A stretch of 64,000 nt of DNA, from positions 470 to 64,469 of the forward strand of contig JAFUPV010000012.1 in the NCBI GenBank assembly GCA_017472605.1, in the 5' to 3' direction. The notes beneath the pieces are model-generated. The model saw nothing but the letters and a program-made list of their open reading frames with translations. It had not been told where the DNA came from and did no database searches. The stretch's first letter is position 1. Every line of letters starts with the position of its first letter. This DNA comes from Lachnospiraceae bacterium (GTDB taxonomy: Bacteria; Bacillota; Clostridia; Lachnospirales; Lachnospiraceae). This document shows, in pieces, positions 2,692 to 37,704 of this stretch. Position numbers and translations under genes: made by a program.

Positions 2692-4362
2692 TCAGCCGAG
2701 GACTGCAACCTGAAACGGCTGCAGAACCAGACTGCTTCCTTTGAATTCCACCGGAGCATTTGCAAGAAGAATCCGTTCCGGCTCTGCAAAAGCGGACGGG
2801 ATCTCAAGTTCTTTTGCCTCATCCCCAAAATTACCGGCAACCAACACATCCTGCTTCTGCCACCGGCGGAAATATGCCATGATACCCGGTTCTTCTTCCA
2901 GGTAAGGCTCTGTCTTTCCGTAAACAAACGCATCCTCAAAACGGGGATCTCTGCGAAGCCTGCTCAGCGCGCGGTAGAAATTGAGAACGCTGTCCGGATC
3001 GTTTTCCTGTTTCTTCGCATTAATTTCTGTATAGTTGGGATTTACCGGAAGCCACGGTGTTCCGGATGTAAATCCGGCATGGCAGGAATCATCCCACTGA
3101 AACGGTGTTCTTGAATTGTCACGGGAATACTGATTCACTGCCTTCAATGCTTCTTCGGGACTTACCCCGGCCTTCAGGCAGACTTCATATTCCGCCCGGC
3201 TGCTGATATCGTCAATCTCATCGATAGACGCATATTTCATGTTTTCCATGCCCAGCTCCTGCCCCTGATAAACAAAGGGGATTCCCTTCAACAGGAAATA
3301 TTCCGCTGCCAGCAGCTTCTTTCCCATGTCATTCTGACCTGCCTTTGGCAGATAATAGCTGACACCGCGGGGCTCATCATGGTTTTCGATCACATTGGAG
3401 TAAAAACCAACGCCCTCGGATCTTCTCTGACTGCCAAAGCAGCAGCGTTTATAGTCATCCGGTGTCGGAATCCGGTTTTCATGCCAGCCCTTTGTGGATT
3501 TTCCTTCCATTGTCTGGCTGAAATCAAAGATAGAAGAGAAATATCCGTTTTCGCCGATGAAATCATTCAGTTCCTCCGGCTTTTCATTGAACACTTCTCC
3601 CACAGCGAACGCATCGTAAAGCTGGAAGGTCCGGTCTCTCATTTCGTTCAGGAATTCGCCGATTCCACAGGTATGGTTCAGAACTTCGCCCATGTCACAG
3701 AGACCATCCTCCCGGTCAGCCGGATAATCTTTAAACGGGAGCGGCTTTTTGATGTTAATAATCGCATCGACGCGGAAGCCGCCCAGCCCCTTTTCCAGCC
3801 ACCAGTTCATCATTCCGTAGATTTCTTCTCTCAGACGGGAATTTTCCCAGTTCAGATCCGGCTGCTTTTTGTGGAACAGGTGGAAATAGTACCATTCTGT
3901 TCCCGGTACCTGCTCCCACACCGATCCGCCGAAATAGGAACGCCAGTTGCATGGCAGCTTTCCGTTTTCCTTTTTTGCAAAGTAGAAATATTTTCCATAT
4001 TCGCCCTCCGGATCGGCGCAGGCACGCTGAAACCATTCATGCTCATCGGAGCAATGGTTCACAACAAGATCCATGAGAATCTTAATATCCCGTTTTCCTG
4101 CCTCTTCAATCAGCCGCTCCATGTCCTCCATGGTTCCAAACATGGGATCGATCTGAAAATAATCTGCAATATCATAGCCCTGATCCGCACATGGCGAAAC
4201 ATAGACCGGTGAAACCCACAGAATTCCGATTCCCAGCGATTTCAGGTAATCCAGCTTTTCAATAATTCCAGGAATGTCACCAATTCCGTCCCCGTTGGTA
4301 TCCAGAAAACTCTTGGGATAAATCTGATATGCAATTTTGTTATGCCACCATTTTCTTTCCAT
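2692..4362 (-). CDS. GH13 alpha-glucosidase / oligo-1,6-glucosidase
   Basis: WWHNKIAYQIYPKSFLDTNGDGIGD, DLVVNHCS, GFRVDA, GEV, ENHDEPR, YQGQELGM, RDNSRTPFQW. Confidence 0.93.
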   Translation of the reverse strand: MERKWWHNKIAYQIYPKSFLDTNGDGIGDIPGIIEKLDYLKSLGIGILWVSPVYVSPCADQGYDIADYFQIDPMFGTMEDMERLIEEAGKRDIKILMDLVVNHCSDEHEWFQRACADPEGEYGKYFYFAKKENGKLPCNWRSYFGGSVWEQVPGTEWYYFHLFHKKQPDLNWENSRLREEIYGMMNWWLEKGLGGFRVDAIINIKKPLPFKDYPADREDGLCDMGEVLNHTCGIGEFLNEMRDRTFQLYDAFAVGEVFNEKPEELNDFIGENGYFSSIFDFSQTMEGKSTKGWHENRIPTPDDYKRCCFGSQRRSEGVGFYSNVIENHDEPRGVSYYLPKAGQNDMGKKLLAAEYFLLKGIPFVYQGQELGMENMKYASIDEIDDISSRAEYEVCLKAGVSPEEALKAVNQYSRDNSRTPFQWDDSCHAGFTSGTPWLPVNPNYTEINAKKQENDPDSVLNFYRALSRLRRDPRFEDAFVYGKTEPYLEEEPGIMAYFRRWQKQDVLVAGNFGDEAKELEIPSAFAEPERILLANAPVEFKGSSLVLQPFQVAVLG

Positions 4363-28469: not shown

Positions 28470-28512
28470 TACATCCGGGCGAACGTGCCTGTGACACGTC
28501 CGGTTGGATTTA
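28470..28512 (-). repeat. REP-like palindromic element, copy 2 (its TAA is the stop codon of the upstream gene)
   Basis: Minus strand TAAATCCAACCGGACGTGTCACAGGCACGTTCGCCCGGATGTA; 38/43 identical to 16500-16542. Confidence 0.8.
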
Positions 28513-30150
28513 TTCTGCCAGCTGACGGTTCATTTCCTCCAAAACAGCTTCCAGTCCTGCCTCCAGCAATTTCTCATGCAGCTCTTCCAGCAGCACTTCC
28601 GTTTCCGCGCCATACATCCCCCAGAATACAGGCGCATAGGAATCGTAAAGTTCCATGCAGGCATCATATTCCTTCTGTACCGCAGAAAGATCAATCGCGG
28701 ATTCGTCCACAAGCGGCATTGACACATATGCATTTGCCTGCAGCTGTGCCTCATAGCACGTTTCGTAAAACGGGATGGAAAGCTCCGCCAGCGCGCGGCA
28801 GGAGGTTCCTAAGCCAAGTCCCATGATGCCGCCTTTTCGGGTGTGATGCACAAGAAACGGTTCTTCTTTCGACGTATCATCGACGTAATAACTCCATCCC
28901 TCGATTCCGGAATATACCAGATTCCGAAATTCCATATCGGAATAAAGCAGATCCAGAAACTGCAGACATTCTTCCGGATACTGTGTTTCTGCGTCCACGC
29001 CAATTCCCATTTTTGCCAGGTTGATGCAGGTTTCGACGTTCAGGATGTTCGGCCATGCAAGGTATGCCGTGCCATATGGATCGGAATTCACGTATCCCCA
29101 TGTGAGACGGTATGCTTCATTGGGGACGAACACTGCCATACAATAAGCTGCCGTATCCGCGGTGGTCCGCAATTCCGGAGTTTTTATGATTCCTGTTTTT
29201 GACTGGCAGGAACTGATCAGAGTCTCCCCATAACCCAGCACGCCTGCTTCCCTGTATTGTCCCAGACACAGATACCAGTTTTTCAGCGTTTCATCTTCGA
29301 GAAAATCAACGACACGCAATGTCCCATCTTCCATTTGGCTGACAGCCCAATACGGTGCGAATTCCTGATAACCTGCAATCTCAAAAAATCCTTCATAAAA
29401 CGAATTTCCCACTTCCATACGCACCGGAATCACACCATTCTGTTTCAGCTGCTCATTTTCAGCCAGAATGGAAAGATCACTGACCGTATTTGTCCACGCA
29501 ATCGGGTAAACATCGCTCAGTTCTTTGTTGTAGTAGATTACATAGGGATTTGAAATCTCAAAACATGCAGGAATTGCATAAATCCCGCCGTCCGCACCTT
29601 TTAATGCTTCTATGCTGACTTCTGCCACCCAGTTATCTTCTGACCGCGTGTAATATGCGTTCAGGGCATCCAGCAGATGTCTTCCCGTTTCCGACTCCAG
29701 ATAGGGGGACAAATTCAGCAGATATCCATTTTCCAGACAATAGGCCTGCAGTTCGGAACTGGTTGTAAAAAAGATGTCCGCAGCCATTCCTTCTTCTTTT
29801 CTGGTTTTATATATCTCAACCGGTGTCAGGAAATCGCCGCTGAAGGATTCCTGATAACCCAGCTCAATTGCAAATTGATATCCGTTTTCTTTCAGATACT
29901 GATTGATCGCATTGATATGCTCCGGATAGCTCACAATGGTGTCATCGATTATTGTAAGAACAATGCCCTCCGGGGCTTTTTCTTCCGCATCGACCTCCGC
30001 CGTACATTCAAACTCCATGTACACAATGTTAGGACTTGCTTCGCCAAAGGTGATTTCTCCTTCTTCTGCGGTTTCGGCAACCGCATTTATACAATTCAAA
30101 AGCAATAGTGCAGACAGAAAAAAGCCAGTGTGTTCCCAGAATCCTTTCAT
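28510..30150 (-). CDS. Secreted solute-binding-protein-like protein
   Basis: Signal peptide; ADIFF, LLNLSPYLESE, DGGIYAIP, YPEECLQFLDLLY, LLEAGLEAVLEEMNRQL resemble family-1 SBPs. Confidence 0.65.
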   Translation of the reverse strand: MKGFWEHTGFFLSALLLLNCINAVAETAEEGEITFGEASPNIVYMEFECTAEVDAEEKAPEGIVLTIIDDTIVSYPEHINAINQYLKENGYQFAIELGYQESFSGDFLTPVEIYKTRKEEGMAADIFFTTSSELQAYCLENGYLLNLSPYLESETGRHLLDALNAYYTRSEDNWVAEVSIEALKGADGGIYAIPACFEISNPYVIYYNKELSDVYPIAWTNTVSDLSILAENEQLKQNGVIPVRMEVGNSFYEGFFEIAGYQEFAPYWAVSQMEDGTLRVVDFLEDETLKNWYLCLGQYREAGVLGYGETLISSCQSKTGIIKTPELRTTADTAAYCMAVFVPNEAYRLTWGYVNSDPYGTAYLAWPNILNVETCINLAKMGIGVDAETQYPEECLQFLDLLYSDMEFRNLVYSGIEGWSYYVDDTSKEEPFLVHHTRKGGIMGLGLGTSCRALAELSIPFYETCYEAQLQANAYVSMPLVDESAIDLSAVQKEYDACMELYDSYAPVFWGMYGAETEVLLEELHEKLLEAGLEAVLEEMNRQLAE

Positions 30151-30302: not shown

Positions 30303-30692
30303 TTAACGATAACGAATCAACGTAAATACCTTCTGATTTCCGCTTGTAGCATCTGTATGTGTATTTGCCACTGAGTATACAAATCCAGTAGCAGAATAAA
30401 CAACACTTGCACTATTACTTCCACCATTACTGCCTCCACCTGCGCCAGAACCATTCTCATCATATGAGTTTGAAATAGTGGAAACAACAGAACCACTTTT
30501 TGCTGTCACTGCTGTTACAACAGGATATACGCCAGCATTTGAATTAATTGAACATGTCGCAGTAATTCCATAACTTGTCGTTGTATATGACGATCCATAT
30601 ACTGTTCCACTGTCTACTACTGCCGCATTTGCAGAAACAGCTACTCCCAATAGTGTCGCCATGGCAACCATTGCAATTTTTATTCGTTTTAT
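30303..30692 (-). CDS. Small secreted Gly/Ser-rich protein ending RYR (paralog 1); probable ATA start at 30692, otherwise ATG at 30671
   Basis: RBS GAAGGGAG 7 nt before ATA AAA CGA ATA AAA; signal peptide ending ANA; homologous to 35075-35470. Confidence 0.7.
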   Translation of the reverse strand: MKRIKIAMVAMATLLGVAVSANAAVVDSGTVYGSSYTTTSYGITATCSINSNAGVYPVVTAVTAKSGSVVSTISNSYDENGSGAGGGSNGGSNSASVVYSATGFVYSVANTHTDATSGNQKVFTLIRYR

Positions 30693-30708: not shown

Positions 30709-31146
30709 TTACCATGAAAAATCTACTACTCCCGTTGACCAATTCGGTGTCCAGTATCCACTAACCACATAGTCTACTAAAGTACTTCCTGTATTTCCCC
30801 GTAAAGCAACATTTCCTTCATGCATCTCACTATAGTACACTAGCTGACACAGATATGGAACTTCTTCTCCTGGTACGATATAATTATATGTTATCTGAGT
30901 CCCATCGGAAGCTACAACCAGCATATTTGTCGGACGGTTTAAAACTGATTGATATGTAATCTTTGCCTGAGCGCAAGAGTACTCAGGATATTTATAAACA
31001 TAGGTACTCATTCCGGCCTGATCTACACTTTTCAACTGAAATCCATAGCCATTCTTTTCATAAATTACATCAGCTGCAAAAACTGTACATGTACCCACTA
31101 AGCATAATACAATCAGTATCATGGATATATACTTTTTCATTAGCAA
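30709..31146 (-). CDS. Small secreted hypothetical protein
   Basis: MKKYISMILIVLCL...VFA signal peptide; C-terminal LRGNTG...VSGYWTPN; RBS GGAGG. Confidence 0.7.
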   Translation of the reverse strand: MLMKKYISMILIVLCLVGTCTVFAADVIYEKNGYGFQLKSVDQAGMSTYVYKYPEYSCAQAKITYQSVLNRPTNMLVVASDGTQITYNYIVPGEEVPYLCQLVYYSEMHEGNVALRGNTGSTLVDYVVSGYWTPNWSTGVVDFSW

Positions 31147-31258: not shown

Positions 31259-31903
31259 TTATTCAAGCATCTCTACAATCTTTCCCTTATCCATTCTGTA
31301 CACAACATCACACAGCAAATCAATATCTTCTTTCGTATGACTGGCAATTATTATCAGTTTCCCTTCTTCTTTCAGACGCAGCAGCAACTGACGGATTTCT
31401 TCAACCCCTTCATTATCCAGTCCGTTCATCGGTTCATCCAGTAATAGAATCTGCGGGTCTTCCATGATCGCCTGTGCGATTCCAAGTCTCTGACGCATTC
31501 CAAGAGAATACGCGCCCACCCTCTTTTTACTGAATGGATCCAGTCCAACAAGCCGGATTGTTTCACGTATCTTCTGATCTGAAATCTTCCCATTAATCAT
31601 CCCAAGCATTTTCAGATTCCGGAATCCCGAATACTCCGGTAAAAAGCCAGGGTTCTCAATGATCAAGCCAACATTCTCCGGTACATCCTGCCCCTCTTTT
31701 AGCACTTTTCCATTGATTGCAATTTCACCTGATGTTGGACGGACAAATCCACAGATATGCTTCATTAATAACGATTTCCCACAACCGTTTCTTCCTACCA
31801 GACCATAAATTTTTCCAGCTTCCATCACTATGTTAATGTCCTTTAATACAATCGCTTCTCCAAACTGCTTATTCAGATTTCTGATTTCAATTTTTCCCGA
31901 CAT
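31259..31903 (-). CDS. ABC transporter ATP-binding protein
   Basis: GRNGCGKS, YSLGMRQR, LDEPMNGLD. Confidence 0.95.
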   Translation of the reverse strand: MSGKIEIRNLNKQFGEAIVLKDINIVMEAGKIYGLVGRNGCGKSLLMKHICGFVRPTSGEIAINGKVLKEGQDVPENVGLIIENPGFLPEYSGFRNLKMLGMINGKISDQKIRETIRLVGLDPFSKKRVGAYSLGMRQRLGIAQAIMEDPQILLLDEPMNGLDNEGVEEIRQLLLRLKEEGKLIIIASHTKEDIDLLCDVVYRMDKGKIVEMLE

Positions 31904-31915
31904 GGACCGTCCCCC

Positions 31916-32794
31916 CTACTGTTCAGAAAATAAATCCATACGCTTCACTTTTCGCCCAATAATTCCTCCCAGAATCAGCATCATGGCAGTACCAGTTATC
32001 ACTACATATGAGCCAGTTAATAAACCGCGTCCGGACAAATACTGCAGATTTTCCATACTGGTCCAGCTGACAGGTGAAAAAATCATATACCAGTTCGTCT
32101 TTTCTGATGTCAGATTATACAGAACCGGATCAATTAAAACCAGAAAAACTGCAGCTGCAATACCAATCCATCTTTTTTTTGAGTACAGATTAATCGCATA
32201 GATCAGAAATCCCAAGATAATCAATATCATCCATGCACTGCCATAGCTGTACAGCACAGCAATCCAATAATTGACCTGATTAACAACATGAACCGGACAC
32301 TGTATTCCGTTCAGGGCTTCAAAGCGATTAATACTGCCTCCTGCAATTGCCCCAATCAGACTTCCCCATCCATGGGTTAAAGAAATTGTTGGTGCAAGAT
32401 AAATACACGTAACAGTCGTAGTCCACAATAAATAAATCAAAGAAGCAAGAATAATGTAGAGACATTCCCCTTTATACCAGTTTTTTCTTCCTGACCGAAT
32501 TACCAGATATGGTTTTTGTTTATCAATAAACGGTGCATTGGAAAGCAGTGCGATTCCGCCAAAAAACAGGATTACTTTGGGCAGTCCATTGCTGTTCATG
32601 GCATCCCCCATCAGTAATGGAAAGATTGTAATTGGCGTAGTAAGTTCATTCTCCAAAGCAAATTTGGATACCGGTAATGTATATCTTCCAAGAACTACCG
32701 CAATCACTGTCAAAATTGTCCAGATTCGGTAATTTCTCTTCCACTCATTCAATCCTTCCGTTGCTACCATCCAGATTTTTTTACAGATTCCCAT
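31916..32794 (-). CDS. Probable ABC exporter permease
   Basis: About 6 transmembrane segments; YLVIRSGRKNW; adjacent to the ATPase gene. Confidence 0.7.
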   Translation of the reverse strand: MGICKKIWMVATEGLNEWKRNYRIWTILTVIAVVLGRYTLPVSKFALENELTTPITIFPLLMGDAMNSNGLPKVILFFGGIALLSNAPFIDKQKPYLVIRSGRKNWYKGECLYIILASLIYLLWTTTVTCIYLAPTISLTHGWGSLIGAIAGGSINRFEALNGIQCPVHVVNQVNYWIAVLYSYGSAWMILIILGFLIYAINLYSKKRWIGIAAAVFLVLIDPVLYNLTSEKTNWYMIFSPVSWTSMENLQYLSGRGLLTGSYVVITGTAMMLILGGIIGRKVKRMDLFSEQ

Positions 32795-33590
32795 TCTTCT
32801 TTCTCCTGTTCATCGCCCACAGACATCCGGCTGCAGTTACCATTTGCGCTGCAATCAATATTCCATTACTATATATGAAATTGGGCCAGAAATCATTTGT
32901 CCCCAATACAATCCAGCAGGAGCTGATCGACCAGAAATCCAGAGACATCGGTAAGATACCGGTAAATGCATATAGGATATAGAACAATATATATGGAATT
33001 GCAATTGCTACATAGCGGCTTGGTGCAAAAATTGAAACAAAGATACCAATATTACTGAGAAACACAATTGCCAAACCAAATTGAAATCCAGTCAGCACAC
33101 CATAGAGCCATGGAAACGGTCCCTTTTCAATGACAGAATAAAAACCAGTCCAGCTCCCATTCCACCCTGCTCCCCCTCTTAGCGGGAAATATGGTGAAAT
33201 AATTGCCAAAAACAGCAGAAATCCGCTAATCGTAACGAAAAGAATCGCGATTGCGTTTGCTATCAGTTTTGAAACTACATAGGATTCAACAGATACTCCA
33301 CGTCCAAGAATCTGCTTTTGAAACGAATACTGTAAATCATCGCTGATACCAAACGTATAGATACCAGACAACATAACTACCATAACTGCTTTAAACCGAT
33401 CAAAATACAGCACCTCCATCAATTTTGATGGTCCGCTTACATAGGGATCAAGATTATATTTCATGCATGCAAGAATACTATCATGAATGCATCCACACAT
33501 CAGAATGGGAACCAGCACCAGAATCAACCAAATCCTTTTTGCCGCGAAACAGCGGTAAAGATCCATCTTAATCATTCCCCAACATTTCAA
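32781..33590 (-). CDS. Probable ABC exporter permease
   Basis: About 6 transmembrane segments; ILGRGVSVESYVVSK; overlaps the next permease gene. Confidence 0.7.
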   Translation of the reverse strand: MKCWGMIKMDLYRCFAAKRIWLILVLVPILMCGCIHDSILACMKYNLDPYVSGPSKLMEVLYFDRFKAVMVVMLSGIYTFGISDDLQYSFQKQILGRGVSVESYVVSKLIANAIAILFVTISGFLLFLAIISPYFPLRGGAGWNGSWTGFYSVIEKGPFPWLYGVLTGFQFGLAIVFLSNIGIFVSIFAPSRYVAIAIPYILFYILYAFTGILPMSLDFWSISSCWIVLGTNDFWPNFIYSNGILIAAQMVTAAGCLWAMNRRKKNGNL

Positions 33591-33629
33591 CCGCGCTCTC
33601 CTCCCTATCTGTTCATTTCCCTTTATCGA

Positions 33630-34733
33630 TCAGTACATACGAAACGTATTGATATCTCCGCTTATCGCATCCAAAAGCATATATCCATCTGCTTCCGCCT
33701 CTCCCCGCAGCCGGTTCGGAAACTCACCGGCATACAGATCAATTGTCGACTCCTTATCTGTAAAACTGAGTTTCCAACAGGGAAGTAATTGTGATGTACC
33801 TTCGATCATATTCTGCTGCTTCGTATTTTCTGTATAAACAAGTTCTATCTCTGTGATTTTCATTTGATCCGGTACCAGCTGATAGATCTCAAATGCCAGT
33901 TCTTTCCACTTTTCTTCCGCTTCTTCACTGGATATCAAGTCCACCATTTCCTCTGAAATAACCTGATATCTCACTGGCGCTTCCAACGAAATCAGTCCTC
34001 TTGCTGGTGAATAAATTATCGAAAGAATTCCATCTTCGATCAAAGAACGATATGCCAGACCTTCAATTTCTTCATATTCATAGAGAAATAGAAATGCAAA
34101 ATCTTCCTGATCCCATTCTCCCGCCGCACTGTCCGTCATATCTTTTCCAGGAGCAGGTGTTCCAAAATACATCCAGGATGCAGATCCAAATTCATCATCA
34201 ATCAAATACGTTCTTACATTTCCGTACGGAAATTCCAATTCCTCCGCAATCTGATCACATACTTCTCTACATTCCTCATATGATTCATATTCTTTCGCAC
34301 TCTCCGGCATCGCCATTTCCAGGAAATCAGGCTGATATTTGCGATACACATTAAGAGGAGTCATTGCCATATGATATGGGTCTGCCAATTCTGTGTTAAT
34401 AACAGAAAACGAACTGCAATCACCATATACCGACAATTTTAAATCTCCGCTGCTATACCAGGCAGACATTTCGTCCATGTCTTCTGCATATTCTTCACCA
34501 AGGAACAGTTGAACAATCTGTTCCAGATCATAACAGGAAAACGACACGTTTAGTAAACGATACTCCGTCAATTGTGTCGTATCAATCTCTTCTTCTGTTT
34601 CATCCACTTCCGATTCTTTTTCGTAGTCGATCACATCCCCGGTCTCTTCAGACACATTTATTTCGTTTGAATATGTATTTTTTGCGTTAACTGCTGCAAC
34701 AATCATCATAAGAAAATATACGATCTTCCTCAT
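33630..34733 (-). CDS. Acidic secreted hypothetical protein
   Basis: Start MRKIVYF with RBS GGAGG; N-terminal hydrophobic segment; C-terminal IELVY...LLPCWKL...LDAISG. Confidence 0.65.
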   Translation of the reverse strand: MRKIVYFLMMIVAAVNAKNTYSNEINVSEETGDVIDYEKESEVDETEEEIDTTQLTEYRLLNVSFSCYDLEQIVQLFLGEEYAEDMDEMSAWYSSGDLKLSVYGDCSSFSVINTELADPYHMAMTPLNVYRKYQPDFLEMAMPESAKEYESYEECREVCDQIAEELEFPYGNVRTYLIDDEFGSASWMYFGTPAPGKDMTDSAAGEWDQEDFAFLFLYEYEEIEGLAYRSLIEDGILSIIYSPARGLISLEAPVRYQVISEEMVDLISSEEAEEKWKELAFEIYQLVPDQMKITEIELVYTENTKQQNMIEGTSQLLPCWKLSFTDKESTIDLYAGEFPNRLRGEAEADGYMLLDAISGDINTFRMY

Positions 34734-34749
34734 TCTGTTCCTCCGATTC

Positions 34750-35023
34750 TTATTCATTATCAAGTTGCCTGTTCATCTCTTCCAATACACGGTTCAGTCC
34801 TGCTCCCAGCAGCTTTTCATGCAATTCATTCAATTTACTTTCCGTCTCTTCGGCATAAATTCCCCAAAACACCGGTGAATATTCCTCATACTATATATGG
34901 GGATGCGTTTTGCTCCCTTGGATCATTCGTTTCTTCCATAAACTCTCCTGCATCTGCAGTACTCCCACTAATACTCCATACACATCCGCCCAGTAATCCC
35001 AACAATAAAAGTCGCTTTCCCAT
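34750..35023 (-). pseudogene. Internally deleted paralog of the 28510-30150 SBP-like gene
   Basis: RBS plus MGKRLLL...NASPYIV* (compare EASPNIV) joined out of frame to YEEYSPVFWGIYAEETESKLNELHEKLLGAGLNRVLEEMNRQLDNE* (compare YDSYAPVFWGMYGAETEVLLEELHEKLLEAGLEAVLEEMNRQLAE). Confidence 0.85.
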
Positions 35024-35074
35024 AGTTTCTATCCTTTTCCTTCCCTATCGTCAAGAATATTTCTCTTCTTTCAC

Positions 35075-35470
35075 CTAACGATACCTGGCTAATGTATAGG
35101 ATTTCTGCAAATTATTTGTTGCATTGCTGTGTACATTTTTCACCATATATGCACTAGTGCTGGGAACGTAAGATATATTGATACTATTATTTCCTCCACC
35201 ACTGTTTCCACCAATTCCTGATCCAGCTTCATTATAGGCTGTTGATACAGCATATACCACGCAACCACTCTTACTGGTAGTTACTGTTATCGGTGCATTT
35301 AATGGATATGTCAATCCATCACCAAACGCACAATATGCGGTAATACCATATCCGGTCGTTGTATATTGCAATCCATAAAATGTTCCACTATCAACGGTTT
35401 CTGCACTTACCGAACACAGATTTCCAAGTAAAAGTATTATTGCCAGTAATAATGTCATTTTCTTCTTCAT
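35075..35470 (-). CDS. Small secreted Gly/Ser-rich protein ending RYR (paralog 2)
   Basis: MKKKMTLLL...VSA signal peptide; about 45% identical by eye to 30303-30692. Confidence 0.8.
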   Translation of the reverse strand: MKKKMTLLLAIILLLGNLCSVSAETVDSGTFYGLQYTTTGYGITAYCAFGDGLTYPLNAPITVTTSKSGCVVYAVSTAYNEAGSGIGGNSGGGNNSINISYVPSTSAYMVKNVHSNATNNLQKSYTLARYR

Positions 35471-35587
35471 AAAACCTTCTTTCTATCTCAGCAAGTATCC
35501 AGTTAGTCTCACCTTTTCCTATTTCTCCCGCCTAACAATCACATCACTTTCCTAAAATAGTATCCGTACTTAAATCACTCTATCGTT

Positions 35588-35655
35588 ATTATATTGCAAA
35601 TATTCTTTTTTTGTCAATAATTCTTTTTGACTTTTTCACAATCTTCTGATATAGT
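35588..35655. promoter_or_regulatory. Back-to-back sigma-A promoters
   Basis: Minus strand TTGACA(35617-35612)-18bp-TATAAT(35593-35588); plus strand TTGACT(35627-35632)-17bp-TATAGT(35650-35655). Confidence 0.7.
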
Positions 35656-35711
35656 AATATCGTATTACATGTATAATTTTTTTACAAAATCAATGAAAGG
35701 ACTGTTATTCC

Positions 35712-36107
35712 ATGGCAATCCACCTACAACAAAAAGAACTGGACATTCTATCCCTTCTGGTTCATGCATCAAAACCAATGGCAATTTCTGAAATTGTTGC
35801 CACCGATCCTTCTTACACAACGAACATCGTTCAGCCAATCATCCGAAAGTTCTGTGAGATGAATCTGGTCGAGGTTGCAGATATCGTCTACAACAAAAAG
35901 GCGCTTACGCGAACCTTCCGTCCAACTGCCTCAGCAAATGCGATTCTTGAAGAACTCTTTCTGAAAGAATATCGTTCCTTCCGTCAGCTCTTTTCTGACA
36001 ATACACTGCTGGCTTCCATGGTTCAATCTGAACTGGACTCCACACAGGATGCAGCAGAAATTCAAAGATTAGAACAGATTTTGGAAACGTTCAAGAAAAA
36101 TCTATAA
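35712..36107 (+). CDS. BlaI/MecI/CopY family repressor
   Basis: KELDILSLLV...PMAISEI...TTNIVQPIIRK winged helix; 131 aa; directly upstream of an M56 peptidase gene. Confidence 0.8.
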   Translation: MAIHLQQKELDILSLLVHASKPMAISEIVATDPSYTTNIVQPIIRKFCEMNLVEVADIVYNKKALTRTFRPTASANAILEELFLKEYRSFRQLFSDNTLLASMVQSELDSTQDAAEIQRLEQILETFKKNL

Positions 36108-36128
36108 GTAAGAACGGAGGAATGTTCA

Positions 36129-37289
36129 TTGAGTTACTCGTTTGAAACAGTCGTAATGGCTGTTTTGTTTTCCAATGTTCTGTTTTTCATTACATATTTA
36201 TTATTTCGGAGTAAAAAGATGCTGCTTCTTGTCGGCTACCGCACCCTGGCAGTTACAACAATTCTTTCCCTGATTCGTTTGCTGTTCCCGATAGAGCTTC
36301 CTTTTACCACAACCATTCTGTATTCCTGCCCGCCTTCAAAAGCGGTTGTTTTTCTTCAGCACAGATGGAACCTGTTTTCCTTCCTTCACGTTTCCATCTT
36401 CGATTTACTCCTCATTGTCTGGGTGATTGGAATCATTCGCGGTTCTTCTGTTTATTTCATGCAATACAGAAAAATCAGCGCATTCATTTTATTACATGGT
36501 AAAGAAGGAGCAAATCAGGAACGATATTCGGCAATCCTGAATTCTGTATGTACTTCTCTGGCTGCGAAAAACAGATTCCAGGTAATGGAAATTGCCGGAC
36601 TTTCAACCCCGATGATTTTTTCCGTTTTCAAACCAACCATTTTGCTGCCTGCGAATCATACCTACACGGATCAGGAACTTTTTTTCATTTTTCAACATGA
36701 AATTTCCCATTCCGTTCACGGTGACCTGCTCGTCAAATTCTTTTTACAGATATTAACCATTGTTTACTGGTGGAATCCACTGTCTGCTTCCATAAAAGCA
36801 CATATGAACCGGATTCTTGAATTGAATATTGACGCAGTTGTTACACACAACGACCGGCAGGCAATTGCAGACTACCTTTCCTGCTTATTGGCGATCAAAA
36901 AGCAGGCTGTCAATTCCAAACCTACTCCATTTCTTTCTTCAATTGGACTCTCCATCGCAGAAATAGAAGGAAGTGAGCTGGAGACCCGGTTTCAGGTACT
37001 GGCGAATCAAACTCCACAGCGGAAATCCGTTTCCTCTGGTATTATCGGTGTCAGCATCCTGTTTTTTCTTATCTCCTATCTGTTCATATGGGAACCCTCT
37101 CAGCCGCCCTCATTGTTTGAGCCGGAATCTTCCTATTTCCAAATGACAGAAGAAAATTCCTATGTAATTCAAAATCCCAACGGAACCTATGACTTTTACT
37201 GGAATGGGCAACTGATTGAAACCGTCGATTCCTTACAGTATTATGATGAATCCATACCAATTTATCAAAGCAAGGAGGATGTCCCATGA
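36129..37289 (+). CDS. M56 family (BlaR1-like) membrane metallopeptidase without a penicillin-binding domain
   Basis: TTG start with RBS GGAGG; RLLFPIELP, KPTILLP, HEISH (HExxH) then HGDLLVK, VYWWNPL; short C-terminal extracellular tail. Confidence 0.88.
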   Translation: MSYSFETVVMAVLFSNVLFFITYLLFRSKKMLLLVGYRTLAVTTILSLIRLLFPIELPFTTTILYSCPPSKAVVFLQHRWNLFSFLHVSIFDLLLIVWVIGIIRGSSVYFMQYRKISAFILLHGKEGANQERYSAILNSVCTSLAAKNRFQVMEIAGLSTPMIFSVFKPTILLPANHTYTDQELFFIFQHEISHSVHGDLLVKFFLQILTIVYWWNPLSASIKAHMNRILELNIDAVVTHNDRQAIADYLSCLLAIKKQAVNSKPTPFLSSIGLSIAEIEGSELETRFQVLANQTPQRKSVSSGIIGVSILFFLISYLFIWEPSQPPSLFEPESSYFQMTEENSYVIQNPNGTYDFYWNGQLIETVDSLQYYDESIPIYQSKEDVP

Positions 37290-37555
37290 CACGCAAACAA
37301 CTTTTTCGCCTCACACTCTCTGCACTCTGCTGCAGCATGTTTCTTTCCCTTCCGGCAACTGCCTCACCCATTTCCGACTATCAGGAAAGCGCTTATGCTA
37401 CTGCATGCACTGCCGTTGATACCTCCGCAGTTCCATATGCCGATGGACTCCAATGGTATTACAAAATTGAAAATGGAAAAATGTATAAGCGATTATATAA
37501 CACGTCCACTGGAAATTGGGTTGGGGACTGGATTTATGTAACGGATGTCGAGTAG
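37286..37555 (+). CDS. Small secreted protein (89 aa) coupled to the M56 gene
   Basis: ATGA overlap with the M56 stop; RBS AAGGAGG; signal peptide ending ATA; C-terminal WYYKIENGKMYKRLYNTSTGNWVGDW. Confidence 0.8.
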   Translation: MTRKQLFRLTLSALCCSMFLSLPATASPISDYQESAYATACTAVDTSAVPYADGLQWYYKIENGKMYKRLYNTSTGNWVGDWIYVTDVE

Positions 37556-37657: not shown

Positions 37658-37704
37658 AAAAGAGAGACTTGTATCCGTGTGAACGGAATTGCAAGTCTCT
37701 CTTT
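37658..37704. terminator. Probable bidirectional terminator between convergent genes
   Basis: AAAGAGAGACTTG ... CAAGTCTCTCTTT inverted repeat. Confidence 0.65.

Follow-up and report, generated by a model that had tools for sequence, protein, structure and literature searches.

What the approximately 94% of M56 "BlaR" proteins that lack a beta-lactam sensor detect is a question that was raised in 2026 for the CenIR pair of C. difficile (PMC13492132). The same question is posed by three adjacent genes in a 64,000-nucleotide (nt) stretch of DNA from a Lachnospiraceae bacterium (GCA_017472605.1, contig JAFUPV010000012.1, positions 470 to 64,469 of the forward strand), which we call the window. 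These genes encode a BlaI-like repressor, an M56 membrane protease and a small exported protein, hereafter the mini-protein. We give an even chance to the reading that they form a three-part variant of the BlaI/BlaR regulated-proteolysis switch, with the mini-protein acting at the outer face of M56 as its outside partner, and the mini-protein is a testable input candidate for one large subfamily of these proteases. A sequence-only reading of the window had placed a BlaI-like, an M56 and an overlapping secreted open reading frame (ORF) here. All three were found where it had put them; the observation is confirmed, and the interpretation attached to it is supported in part. The features of the operon are as follows.

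35712-37555, plus strand: blaI-M56-mini operon, three same-strand ORFs
35712..36107, plus strand: divergent BlaI/MecI-family winged-helix repressor, 131 amino acids (aa), on family-level evidence
36129..37289, plus strand: M56 (BlaR1-type) membrane zinc protease without a penicillin-binding domain, 386 aa, TTG start
36696..36710, plus strand: HEISH zinc-binding motif of M56 (H190/E191/H194), invariant in 66 homologues
37023..37082, plus strand: fourth transmembrane (TM) helix of M56, TM4, residues 299-318 (AlphaFold helices), which by analogy with BlaR1 is predicted to put the C-terminal tail outside the cell
37098..37286, plus strand: outside tail of M56, residues 324-386 (63 aa), with the motif N.Y.I...DGTYD.Y....ETVDSL..Y...I.IY
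37272..37278, plus strand: Shine-Dalgarno sequence AAGGAGG for the mini-protein, within the 3' end of the M56 gene
37286..37555, plus strand: exported mini-protein, 89 aa, with a signal peptide (approximately residues 1-26), a variable linker and a conserved C-terminal domain
37439..37552, plus strand: conserved C-terminal domain of the mini-protein, residues 52-89, with strands 55-62, 65-72 and 77-87 and the nearly invariant residues Y67, R69, L70, N72, W78, G80 and W82

The ATG of the mini gene at 37286 overlaps the TGA of the M56 gene at 37287-37289 (ATGA). The N terminus of its product resembles a signal peptide, with K/R residues followed by a hydrophobic 12-mer and then PATA/SP, and the layout of a Sec signal peptide was found in 142 of 147 relatives, while a lipobox-like motif occurred in only 7 of 148. 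The C-terminal 37 aa contain three tryptophans, five tyrosines and three lysines. Residues 55-87 were modeled by AlphaFold (148 sequences) as a three-stranded antiparallel beta-meander with a predicted local distance difference test score (pLDDT) of 94 to 97, and the part preceding them as disordered. A word-indexed search recovered 15 homologues of 81 to 125 aa, in which the N-terminal half is variable and the C-terminal block is nearly invariant (W.YKIENGKMYKRLYN.ST..W(V/I)GDWIYV). A profile of this block, searched against 1.84 billion representatives, matched 726 clusters (50% identity) when E ≤ 1e-3 was required, 155 of them even at E ≤ 1e-10; among the 150 clusters listed, nearly all proteins were 60 to 95 aa long and carried the domain at their extreme C terminus. 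With 15 close homologues and 726 profile clusters, the mini ORF is therefore real, far beyond chance.

The family is nevertheless previously undescribed and unannotated: it has no Pfam or NCBIfam model and no Pfam match at E 10, and we found no paper describing either the family or such a three-gene unit. Foldseek of the mini-protein model against the PDB gave no match with E ≤ 0.001. We considered whether the mini-protein is a WW domain; the WW prototype is indeed the best and only PDB sequence that its profile matches, at a nonsignificant E of 0.38, so that WW-like is a description of the domain and not a classification. An identity as a choline-binding or cell wall repeat (PF01473) was likewise rejected, there being no Pfam match at E 10; in addition, a hidden Markov model of the mini domain did not match the eight-repeat Choline_bind_1 protein of locus L111 at E 0.01. 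The sequence-only reading had also proposed a second cleavage of the mini-protein at AVPY/A. This is unsupported: Pro-x-(Ala/Ser)-Asp does precede the domain in most relatives, but nothing indicates processing there.

The 386-aa protein matches Peptidase_M56 (PF05569) in Pfam at 1.9e-23 over residues 88-262, and further M56 family residues besides HEISH are invariant in the 66 homologues. No transpeptidase or penicillin-binding domain was found in it, the protein stopping 63 residues past TM4. The NCBIfam BlaR1 model (585 positions) was matched only at positions 104-305, with 65 bits against a cut-off of 400, and the protein is therefore not an equivalog of BlaR1/MecR1. In its AlphaFold model (pLDDT 80.8), the TM helices are at residues 5-27, 29-52, 90-123 and 299-318, residues 61-89 form an outside loop that contains short strands, and the third and fourth helices enclose the protease domain; the structures ranked on top by Foldseek were those of S. 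aureus BlaR1 solved by cryo-electron microscopy (8exs, 8exq and 8exp; E 1e-5, probability 1.0). M56 is thus predicted to have four TM helices, a cytoplasmic protease domain and its C terminus outside the cell; this orientation of the tail is supported by the location of a basic RSKK loop between TM1 and TM2. Public gene calls begin M56 at ATG 36219, which gives a 356-aa form. We prefer TTG 36129 as the start, because GGAGG lies 9 nt 5' of it and because the 30 extra residues form the TM1 that is conserved in homologues; the 356-aa call would lose one TM helix and thereby invert the predicted topology.

The outside tail contains seven tyrosines and was modeled as a disordered linker (328-336) followed by three beta-strands (344-348, 354-358 and 361-366; pLDDT approximately 85). 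The proposal that a Tyr-rich tail replaces the sensor domain is correct insofar as M56 has no penicillin-binding domain and ends in a Tyr-rich tail of 63 aa. However, this is not special, since approximately 94% of M56 proteins are sensor-less (PMC13492132). The tail is not specific to loci with a mini-protein, and part of it is predicted to fold as three strands. Two relations between tail and mini-protein were considered and rejected: homology of the two meanders as a duplicated module (hhalign probability 0.1), and binding of the WW-like mini domain to a Pro-rich motif after TM4 (only 10 of 66 tails contain PP, and 19 of 66 lack proline altogether).

The 131-aa protein encoded by the first gene gave no match in Pfam or NCBIfam, even with a threshold as loose as E 10. 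phmmer tied it to small proteins encoded before M56 genes elsewhere, with values of 1e-16 to 1e-31, and 13 of 18 homologues encoded beside M56 genes matched PF03965 (Penicillinase_R). Furthermore, for a profile of this group the best solved structures were S. aureus BlaI (1sd4, residues 7-126, full length, E 4.9e-5) and MecI (1sd6 and 1okr). Both results lead us to regard the 131-aa protein, at the family level only, as a divergent BlaI-family repressor. In S. aureus BlaI the scissile bond is Asn-Phe (N101-F102). We looked for this site in the alignment to BlaI and found that the aligned region (...LLASMVQSELDS...) is without N-F; the cleavage site of this repressor, if there is one, would thus differ from that of S. 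aureus BlaI. The repressor and M56 genes are separated by 21 nt in the window, and the repressor gene lies beside the M56 gene in most loci.

We then determined whether the mini gene is linked to M56 genes elsewhere, a check that had been suggested for this locus. It is: in genomes and metagenomes taken together, 117 of 127 distinct mini genes adjoin an M56 gene, with 400 to 500 bp as the adjacency threshold. On contigs representing one genome per species, an M56 gene was found within 400 bp of 87 of the 96 distinct mini genes; 83 of these pairs were ordered M56-then-mini on the same strand, two were mini-then-M56 and two were on opposite strands. Five of the nine genomic mini genes without M56 nearby were at contig ends. 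In the JGI/ENA metagenomes, M56 was adjacent to 30 of 31 distinct mini genes. The contigs of six mini homologues all carried Penicillinase_R, M56 and the mini gene, one of them in the order repressor-mini-M56, and the trio was kept together through other gene-order variants as well (blaI-mini-M56, mini-blaI-M56 and convergent layouts). Across loci, only the repressor, M56 and the mini gene are conserved. Two scans of the one-genome-per-species contigs yielded 105 loci, mostly in Lachnospiraceae (Acetatifactor and others), and other carriers include Erysipelotrichaceae (Allobaculum, Floccifex, Thomasclavelia and Longicatena), Lacrimispora, Clostridium fessum, Sedimentibacter and Tissierella; altogether, considerably more than a hundred gut Clostridia and related bacteria have the trio. 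The linkage of the mini-protein to M56 is therefore real, strong and resistant to rearrangement.

It usually includes translational coupling. Among 82 ordered M56-mini pairs, the start of the mini gene overlaps the M56 stop in 59 and lies 0 to 30 nt away in 17. In another clade (loci L001, L005, L008, L014 and L015), the M56 gene ends at a terminator-like hairpin and the mini gene has a near-consensus promoter of its own, within the following stretches.

L001, 5846-6000: separated M56-mini stretch
L005, 1588-1705: separated M56-mini stretch
L008, 1713-1864: separated M56-mini stretch
L014, 4780-4946: separated M56-mini stretch
L015, 4804-4946: separated M56-mini stretch

Since the mini gene has its own promoter in this clade, both coupled and uncoupled layouts exist, and a separate promoter means that the ratio of M56 to mini-protein can be tuned, which fits a regulatory partner. 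In the same clade, an inverted repeat GAC(N)T-N9-11-AAGTC, a possible operator, is present in the spacer of several blaI promoters and of the mini promoter of L005.

Some genomes have duplicated M56 cassettes, in tandem or as neighbours (L018, L023, L054, L073/L160 and L090). L023 has two complete trios in tandem with near-identical mini-proteins, and in L018 and L073 the additional copy is a repressor-M56 pair or an M56 that lacks a mini gene of its own; one mini-protein might serve two sensors there. In the Acetatifactor clade (L001/L002/L009, L004, L026, L028 and L024), the trio lies between DegT-type aminotransferase and Polysacc_synt_2/epimerase genes or near GT2, NTP-transferase and GHMP-kinase genes, and this surface-glycan biosynthesis setting may hint at an envelope-related regulon. 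One orphan mini gene (L105, 3348-3614, Lacrimispora sp. AGF001) has a radical-SAM enzyme gene on one side and two ABC exporter genes on the other, a setting typical of modified-peptide clusters and perhaps a coincidence.

Seeding the scan with M56 instead recovered 80 proteins, 76 of which had the tail motif of the window protein; a mini gene was adjacent in 53 of these 76 and absent from the vicinity in 23. The closest relatives of the window M56 (41% identity, P0181) have the tail, with neither a repressor nor a mini gene adjacent, and are encoded between ABC transporter genes. Because of these two findings, we consider the tail a trait of a wider M56 subfamily, in which the mini-protein is frequent but not obligatory. 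P0181 itself (L117/L118, 5001-6155; GCA_027494395.1, human gut) is a very common orphan M56, present on more than 500 contigs. It is flanked by near-duplicate sets of genes for an ABC ATPase and a 794-aa protein, accompanied by the gene for a 401-aa and a 439-aa protein, respectively.

In one locus, M56 and the mini domain are a single protein. Positions 2378-3703 of L200, from a metagenome-assembled genome (MAG) of an uncultured Ruminococcus (CAMMBV010000008.1), form one clean ORF that comprises the M56 body, TM4, the tail, a Ser/Thr-rich linker of 25 aa and the mini domain, whose part reads ...AADWKYISVGNRLHRRLYDHTRHRWISGWIPC. No hydrophobic signal-like segment is present between tail and mini domain, and a BlaI-like gene lies just upstream. 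Since a read-through artefact would have retained the signal peptide, this looks like a true fusion, which would place the mini domain outside the cell, tethered in cis to the tail. Judged from its sequence, the fusion argues that the mini domain works at the outer face together with M56. A second candidate, P0146 (L202, 877-1173), was rejected as a relic: it is a 98-aa ORF consisting of TM4, half a tail and a mini domain, on an internal stretch of a 7.4-kb contig with neither an M56 body nor BlaI. It adjoins GDPD and epimerase genes and would yield a membrane-anchored mini domain if expressed.

The trio also appears to be transcribed as a unit. For the L039 trio (Lachnospiraceae bacterium COE1), four independent mouse-gut metatranscriptome assemblies contained contigs that run from 1684-1728 to 3626-3747 and span the repressor, M56 and the mini gene; the flanks had no or low depth. 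This fits one tricistronic RNA of approximately 2 kb in vivo, with the reservation that contig depth is a poor measure and that DNA carry-over is not strictly excluded. The window locus, when sought in sequencing runs, was found in DNA gut metagenomes only and in no RNA run, and L014 was present in no RNA run either.

Taken together, we favor the mini-protein as the outside partner of M56 because it tracks M56 and not target genes, because its translation is usually coupled to that of M56, because export takes it to where the tail and the L2 loop lie and because it can be fused to the tail. BlaR1 offers a precedent, as its outside sensor domain signals via contacts with the outside L2 loop. 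The switch could work as follows. The BlaI-like repressor would shut its own promoter and probably also the back-to-back divergent promoter. M56 would have its zinc site on the cytoplasmic side and expose only the short L2 loop and the beta-meander of its 63-aa tail outside. The mini-protein would be exported by Sec and lose its signal peptide, and its beta-meander of 33 to 38 aa, on a flexible linker of approximately 25 aa, would dock on the outer face of M56, at the tail and/or the L2 loop. Occupancy of this docking site would set the activity of the protease toward the repressor, and might depend on the amount of mini-protein made, its retention in the envelope, its titration by an envelope component or its destruction. 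As the mini-protein belongs to the same autoregulated unit, the feedback loop would be closed. We infer binding, the direction of its effect (activating or inhibiting) and repressor cleavage, as well as the operator and target genes discussed below. Somewhat more tentatively, at a little under an even chance, the exported mini-protein could be a self-made extracellular ligand or co-receptor that gates the sensor-less M56, the cell reading the fate of its own secreted domain into BlaI-type repressor cleavage. The fates so read, proposed with the same slight reserve, would be that the domain sits on M56, that a component of the envelope titrates it, or that it is lost or degraded.

Several observations weigh against an outside partner. 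About 30% of the M56 proteins with the same tail (23/76) have no adjacent mini gene, so the tail can presumably work alone, and the L200 fusion is the sole one among approximately 190 M56 loci and comes from a MAG, a search of other genomes and metagenomes having given the same MAG contig only. In addition, conservation is much higher in the mini domain, with a mean column identity of 62 to 73% across genera, than in the tail, with 28%. The difference in conservation would be odd if the mini domain had no partner but the tail, and is a hint of an envelope ligand that is conserved, or of the L2 loop; the domain may also bind something invariant, whether an envelope component or a conserved L2 loop, which would suit a secreted reporter partitioned between envelope and sensor. 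Finally, the main repressed target under CenIR is a small exported protein whose gene lies 215 bp downstream, and depletion of CenIR de-represses it 500-fold (PMC13492132). This precedent favors the main rival, which we regard as unlikely but serious, namely, that the mini-protein is a regulated output: BlaI would repress it, M56 would sense an unrelated envelope cue via its tail, and the exported mini-protein would act on the envelope, a model that has been proposed for CDR_0474 under CenIR. The mini genes that have their own promoter after an M56 terminator, or that are convergent to M56, would suit such an output, as would a conserved non-M56 target suggested by the extreme conservation of the domain, the M56 proteins that have the tail and no mini gene, and the position of the Acetatifactor-clade cassette among surface-glycan genes such as those for DegT and Polysacc_synt_2. 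However, tethering the domain to M56, as in L200, makes little sense for a free effector; the majority layout couples translation of the mini-protein to that of M56 in an autoregulated operon, so that it is made whenever the sensor is made; and an output gene would not be expected to follow M56 through every rearrangement while the other neighbours change.

That the mini-protein is a diffusible population-level autoinducer, which builds up outside, activates M56 above a threshold and boosts its own operon through BlaI cleavage, seems improbable to us. The layout does recall that of Sec-exported Phr-type pro-peptides, in which the 3' end of the receptor gene runs into a small gene whose product consists of a signal peptide, a pro-region that varies and a C terminus that is conserved, and the operon is apparently autoregulated. 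Yet the active part would be a folded domain of 33 to 38 aa that is nearly invariant across families and orders, from which massive cross-talk in the gut would follow, whereas pheromones usually diversify into specificity groups. Moreover, the L200 fusion renders the domain nondiffusible, and the tandem trios of L023 have near-identical mini-proteins. The autoinducing or inhibitory role that the sequence-only reading had suggested for the mini-protein is not supported: its domain is far more conserved than typical pheromones, and CenIR/CDR_0474 sets the precedent of a small protein that is a repressed output. We give very little credit to a Sec-dependent bacteriocin-like peptide for which BlaI/M56 would be the regulator or immunity device. 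The mini-protein is indeed a small exported protein with many Trp, Tyr and Lys residues, genes for ABC-2 transporters and paralogous small secreted proteins are near it in the window, and the orphan mini gene of L105 lies beside radical-SAM enzyme and ABC exporter genes. But no transporter or immunity gene is conserved with the mini gene, its conservation is far above the bacteriocin norm, it has neither Cys pairs nor a leader of a known bacteriocin class, and a fusion to M56 exists.

If the mini-protein gates the protease, it would represent a new signalling-input design, in which a secreted reporter domain is read by a protease/repressor switch, and offer a way into the gene regulation of abundant gut commensals. 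The gating view, if true, would also describe a general mechanism by which a large share of orphan BlaIR systems in gut Firmicutes receive their signal. If the mini-protein is instead an output, it would be a widespread envelope-acting mini-protein under BlaIR control.

Around the operon, the window contains the following features.

35588..35617, minus strand: sigma-70-type promoter TTGACA-18-TATAAT (12/12), facing the divergent operon; its function is predicted from the consensus match
35627..35655, plus strand: sigma-70-type promoter TTGACT-17-TATAGT, TG-extended, predicted to drive blaI-M56-mini, back to back with the minus-strand promoter
35666..35673, no strand: perfect palindrome TACATGTA, just 3' of the plus-strand -10 box; tentative candidate for a BlaI-type operator, with TACA/TGTA half-sites
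37659..37704, plus strand: strong hairpin (dG -28.7 kcal/mol, z -5.8), approximately 100 nt after the mini stop
31259..35470, minus strand: divergent operon encoding a secreted 131-aa Gly/Ser-rich protein, a 377-aa exported protein, two ABC-2-type membrane proteins and an ABC ATPase
35470..35075, minus strand: gene for the secreted 131-aa protein, heading the divergent operon

The arrangement of the two promoters resembles that of the blaZ/blaR1-blaI divergon. Within the window, the TACATGTA site is the sole close match to TATTACATGTATA. A common TACA/TGTA operator was sought 5' of the blaI genes of homologues and not found, and our operator call is tentative because the palindrome is not conserved there; in its place, the promoter spacer of some clades seems to contain an inverted repeat GACTT-N9-11-AAGTC. 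A motif TATCGT(T)ATTA occurs once beside each divergent -10 box (35580-35603 and 35657-35680), in the same orientation, and is either a second operator element or chance. The hairpin at 37659-37704 is likely the terminator of the operon and possibly also of the convergent gene, tentatively so given its weak U-tract. Together with the promoter at 35627..35655, it predicts a transcription unit of approximately 2.05 kb.

By analogy with the bla divergon, the divergent-promoter layout suggests that the divergent operon (35470..31259) is a likely target of the BlaI-like repressor. The flanking genes of the window, divergent operon included, do not recur in other loci with the trio. The secreted Gly/Ser-rich protein heading the divergent operon (35075-35470, minus strand) has a paralogue encoded at 30303-30671 (minus strand); the two, of approximately 125 aa, are 48% identical, both end in ...TL.RYR and have no match in Pfam or NCBIfam, and the gene for a 145-aa secreted protein (30709-31146) adjoins that of the second. 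The downstream part of the divergent operon (31259-33590, minus strand) encodes an ABC ATPase of 214 aa, a multi-TM protein of 292 aa and an ABC-2-type permease of 269 aa. The closest M56 relatives (L092 and L117/L118) are also encoded beside ABC-2-type transporters with membrane proteins of approximately 795 aa; except for the ATPase, these proteins and those of the window are not homologous. Between the 377-aa and 131-aa protein genes, a 40-aa ORF (34750-34872, minus strand) resembles the DUF3502 region at the C terminus of solute-binding proteins like the one encoded at 28510-30150; it was flagged as a weak DUF3502 match in the gene list of L119 and is probably a gene relic.

Compared with the known systems, the locus shares with BlaR1/BlaI and MecR1/MecI of S. 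aureus and B. licheniformis a BlaI-family repressor next to a four-TM M56 with HExxH, and the divergent promoters of the bla locus. Unlike them, it has the 63-aa beta-meander tail instead of the penicillin sensor, the repressor gene in first position and a third, exported component; moreover, the S. aureus Asn-Phe site is not conserved, and no gene for a beta-lactamase or penicillin-binding protein 2a (PBP2a) is nearby in the window. The transpeptidase domain is present in only approximately 6% of some 15,000 M56 proteins, M56 with a short undefined C-terminal region being the commonest architecture (PMC13492132). The closest precedent is CenIR, a BlaI-like/M56 pair of C. difficile without a transpeptidase domain, for which no inducing condition was found (Kurtz et al., J Bacteriol 2026, PMC13492132). 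Like our locus, it combines such a pair with an adjacent small signal-peptide protein: the strongest CenI target is cdr_0474 (500-fold), whose exported product of 136 aa has no BLAST relatives outside C. difficile (PMC13492132). However, in contrast to this C. difficile-restricted product, the mini family is widespread (726 clusters), and the two are unrelated as far as can be told; no C. difficile locus was among the best 80 of 111 mini matches. Furthermore, cdr_0474 is regulated on its own from a position 215 bp downstream, while most mini genes overlap the M56 stop, and the tail of CenR is long (residues 334-460) and mostly unstructured. The BlaIR pairs of M. tuberculosis and M. abscessus and PvmSR of P. 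aeruginosa (preprint 10.64898/2026.08.03.742534) resemble the present pair in having a sensor-less M56 and serve nonresistance functions. Unlike for the present pair, we found no conserved exported third partner reported for either the mycobacterial BlaIR pairs or PvmSR.

The mini domain shares with WW domains its length of approximately 35 aa, a three-stranded antiparallel meander, two tryptophans 22 residues apart and a G-K-x-Y...N...T..W pattern, but there is no proline after its second tryptophan and no conserved Pro-rich partner motif in the M56 tail. In the mecR1-mecI-mecR2 operon, MecR2 is a cytoplasmic ROK-like anti-repressor that acts on MecI. It thus offers another case of a third gene modulating the switch in a BlaIR-type operon, although the mini-protein is exported and unrelated. 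In the Rap-Phr systems of Bacillus, the receptor gene shares its 3' end with a small overlapping gene for a Sec-exported product whose conserved part is C-terminal; the Phr signals are highly variable peptides of 5 to 6 aa that are re-imported to a cytoplasmic receptor. The mini gene is similarly a small signal-peptide ORF overlapping or abutting a receptor gene, but its product is a folded, conserved domain of 33 to 38 aa that would act outside, on a membrane protease.

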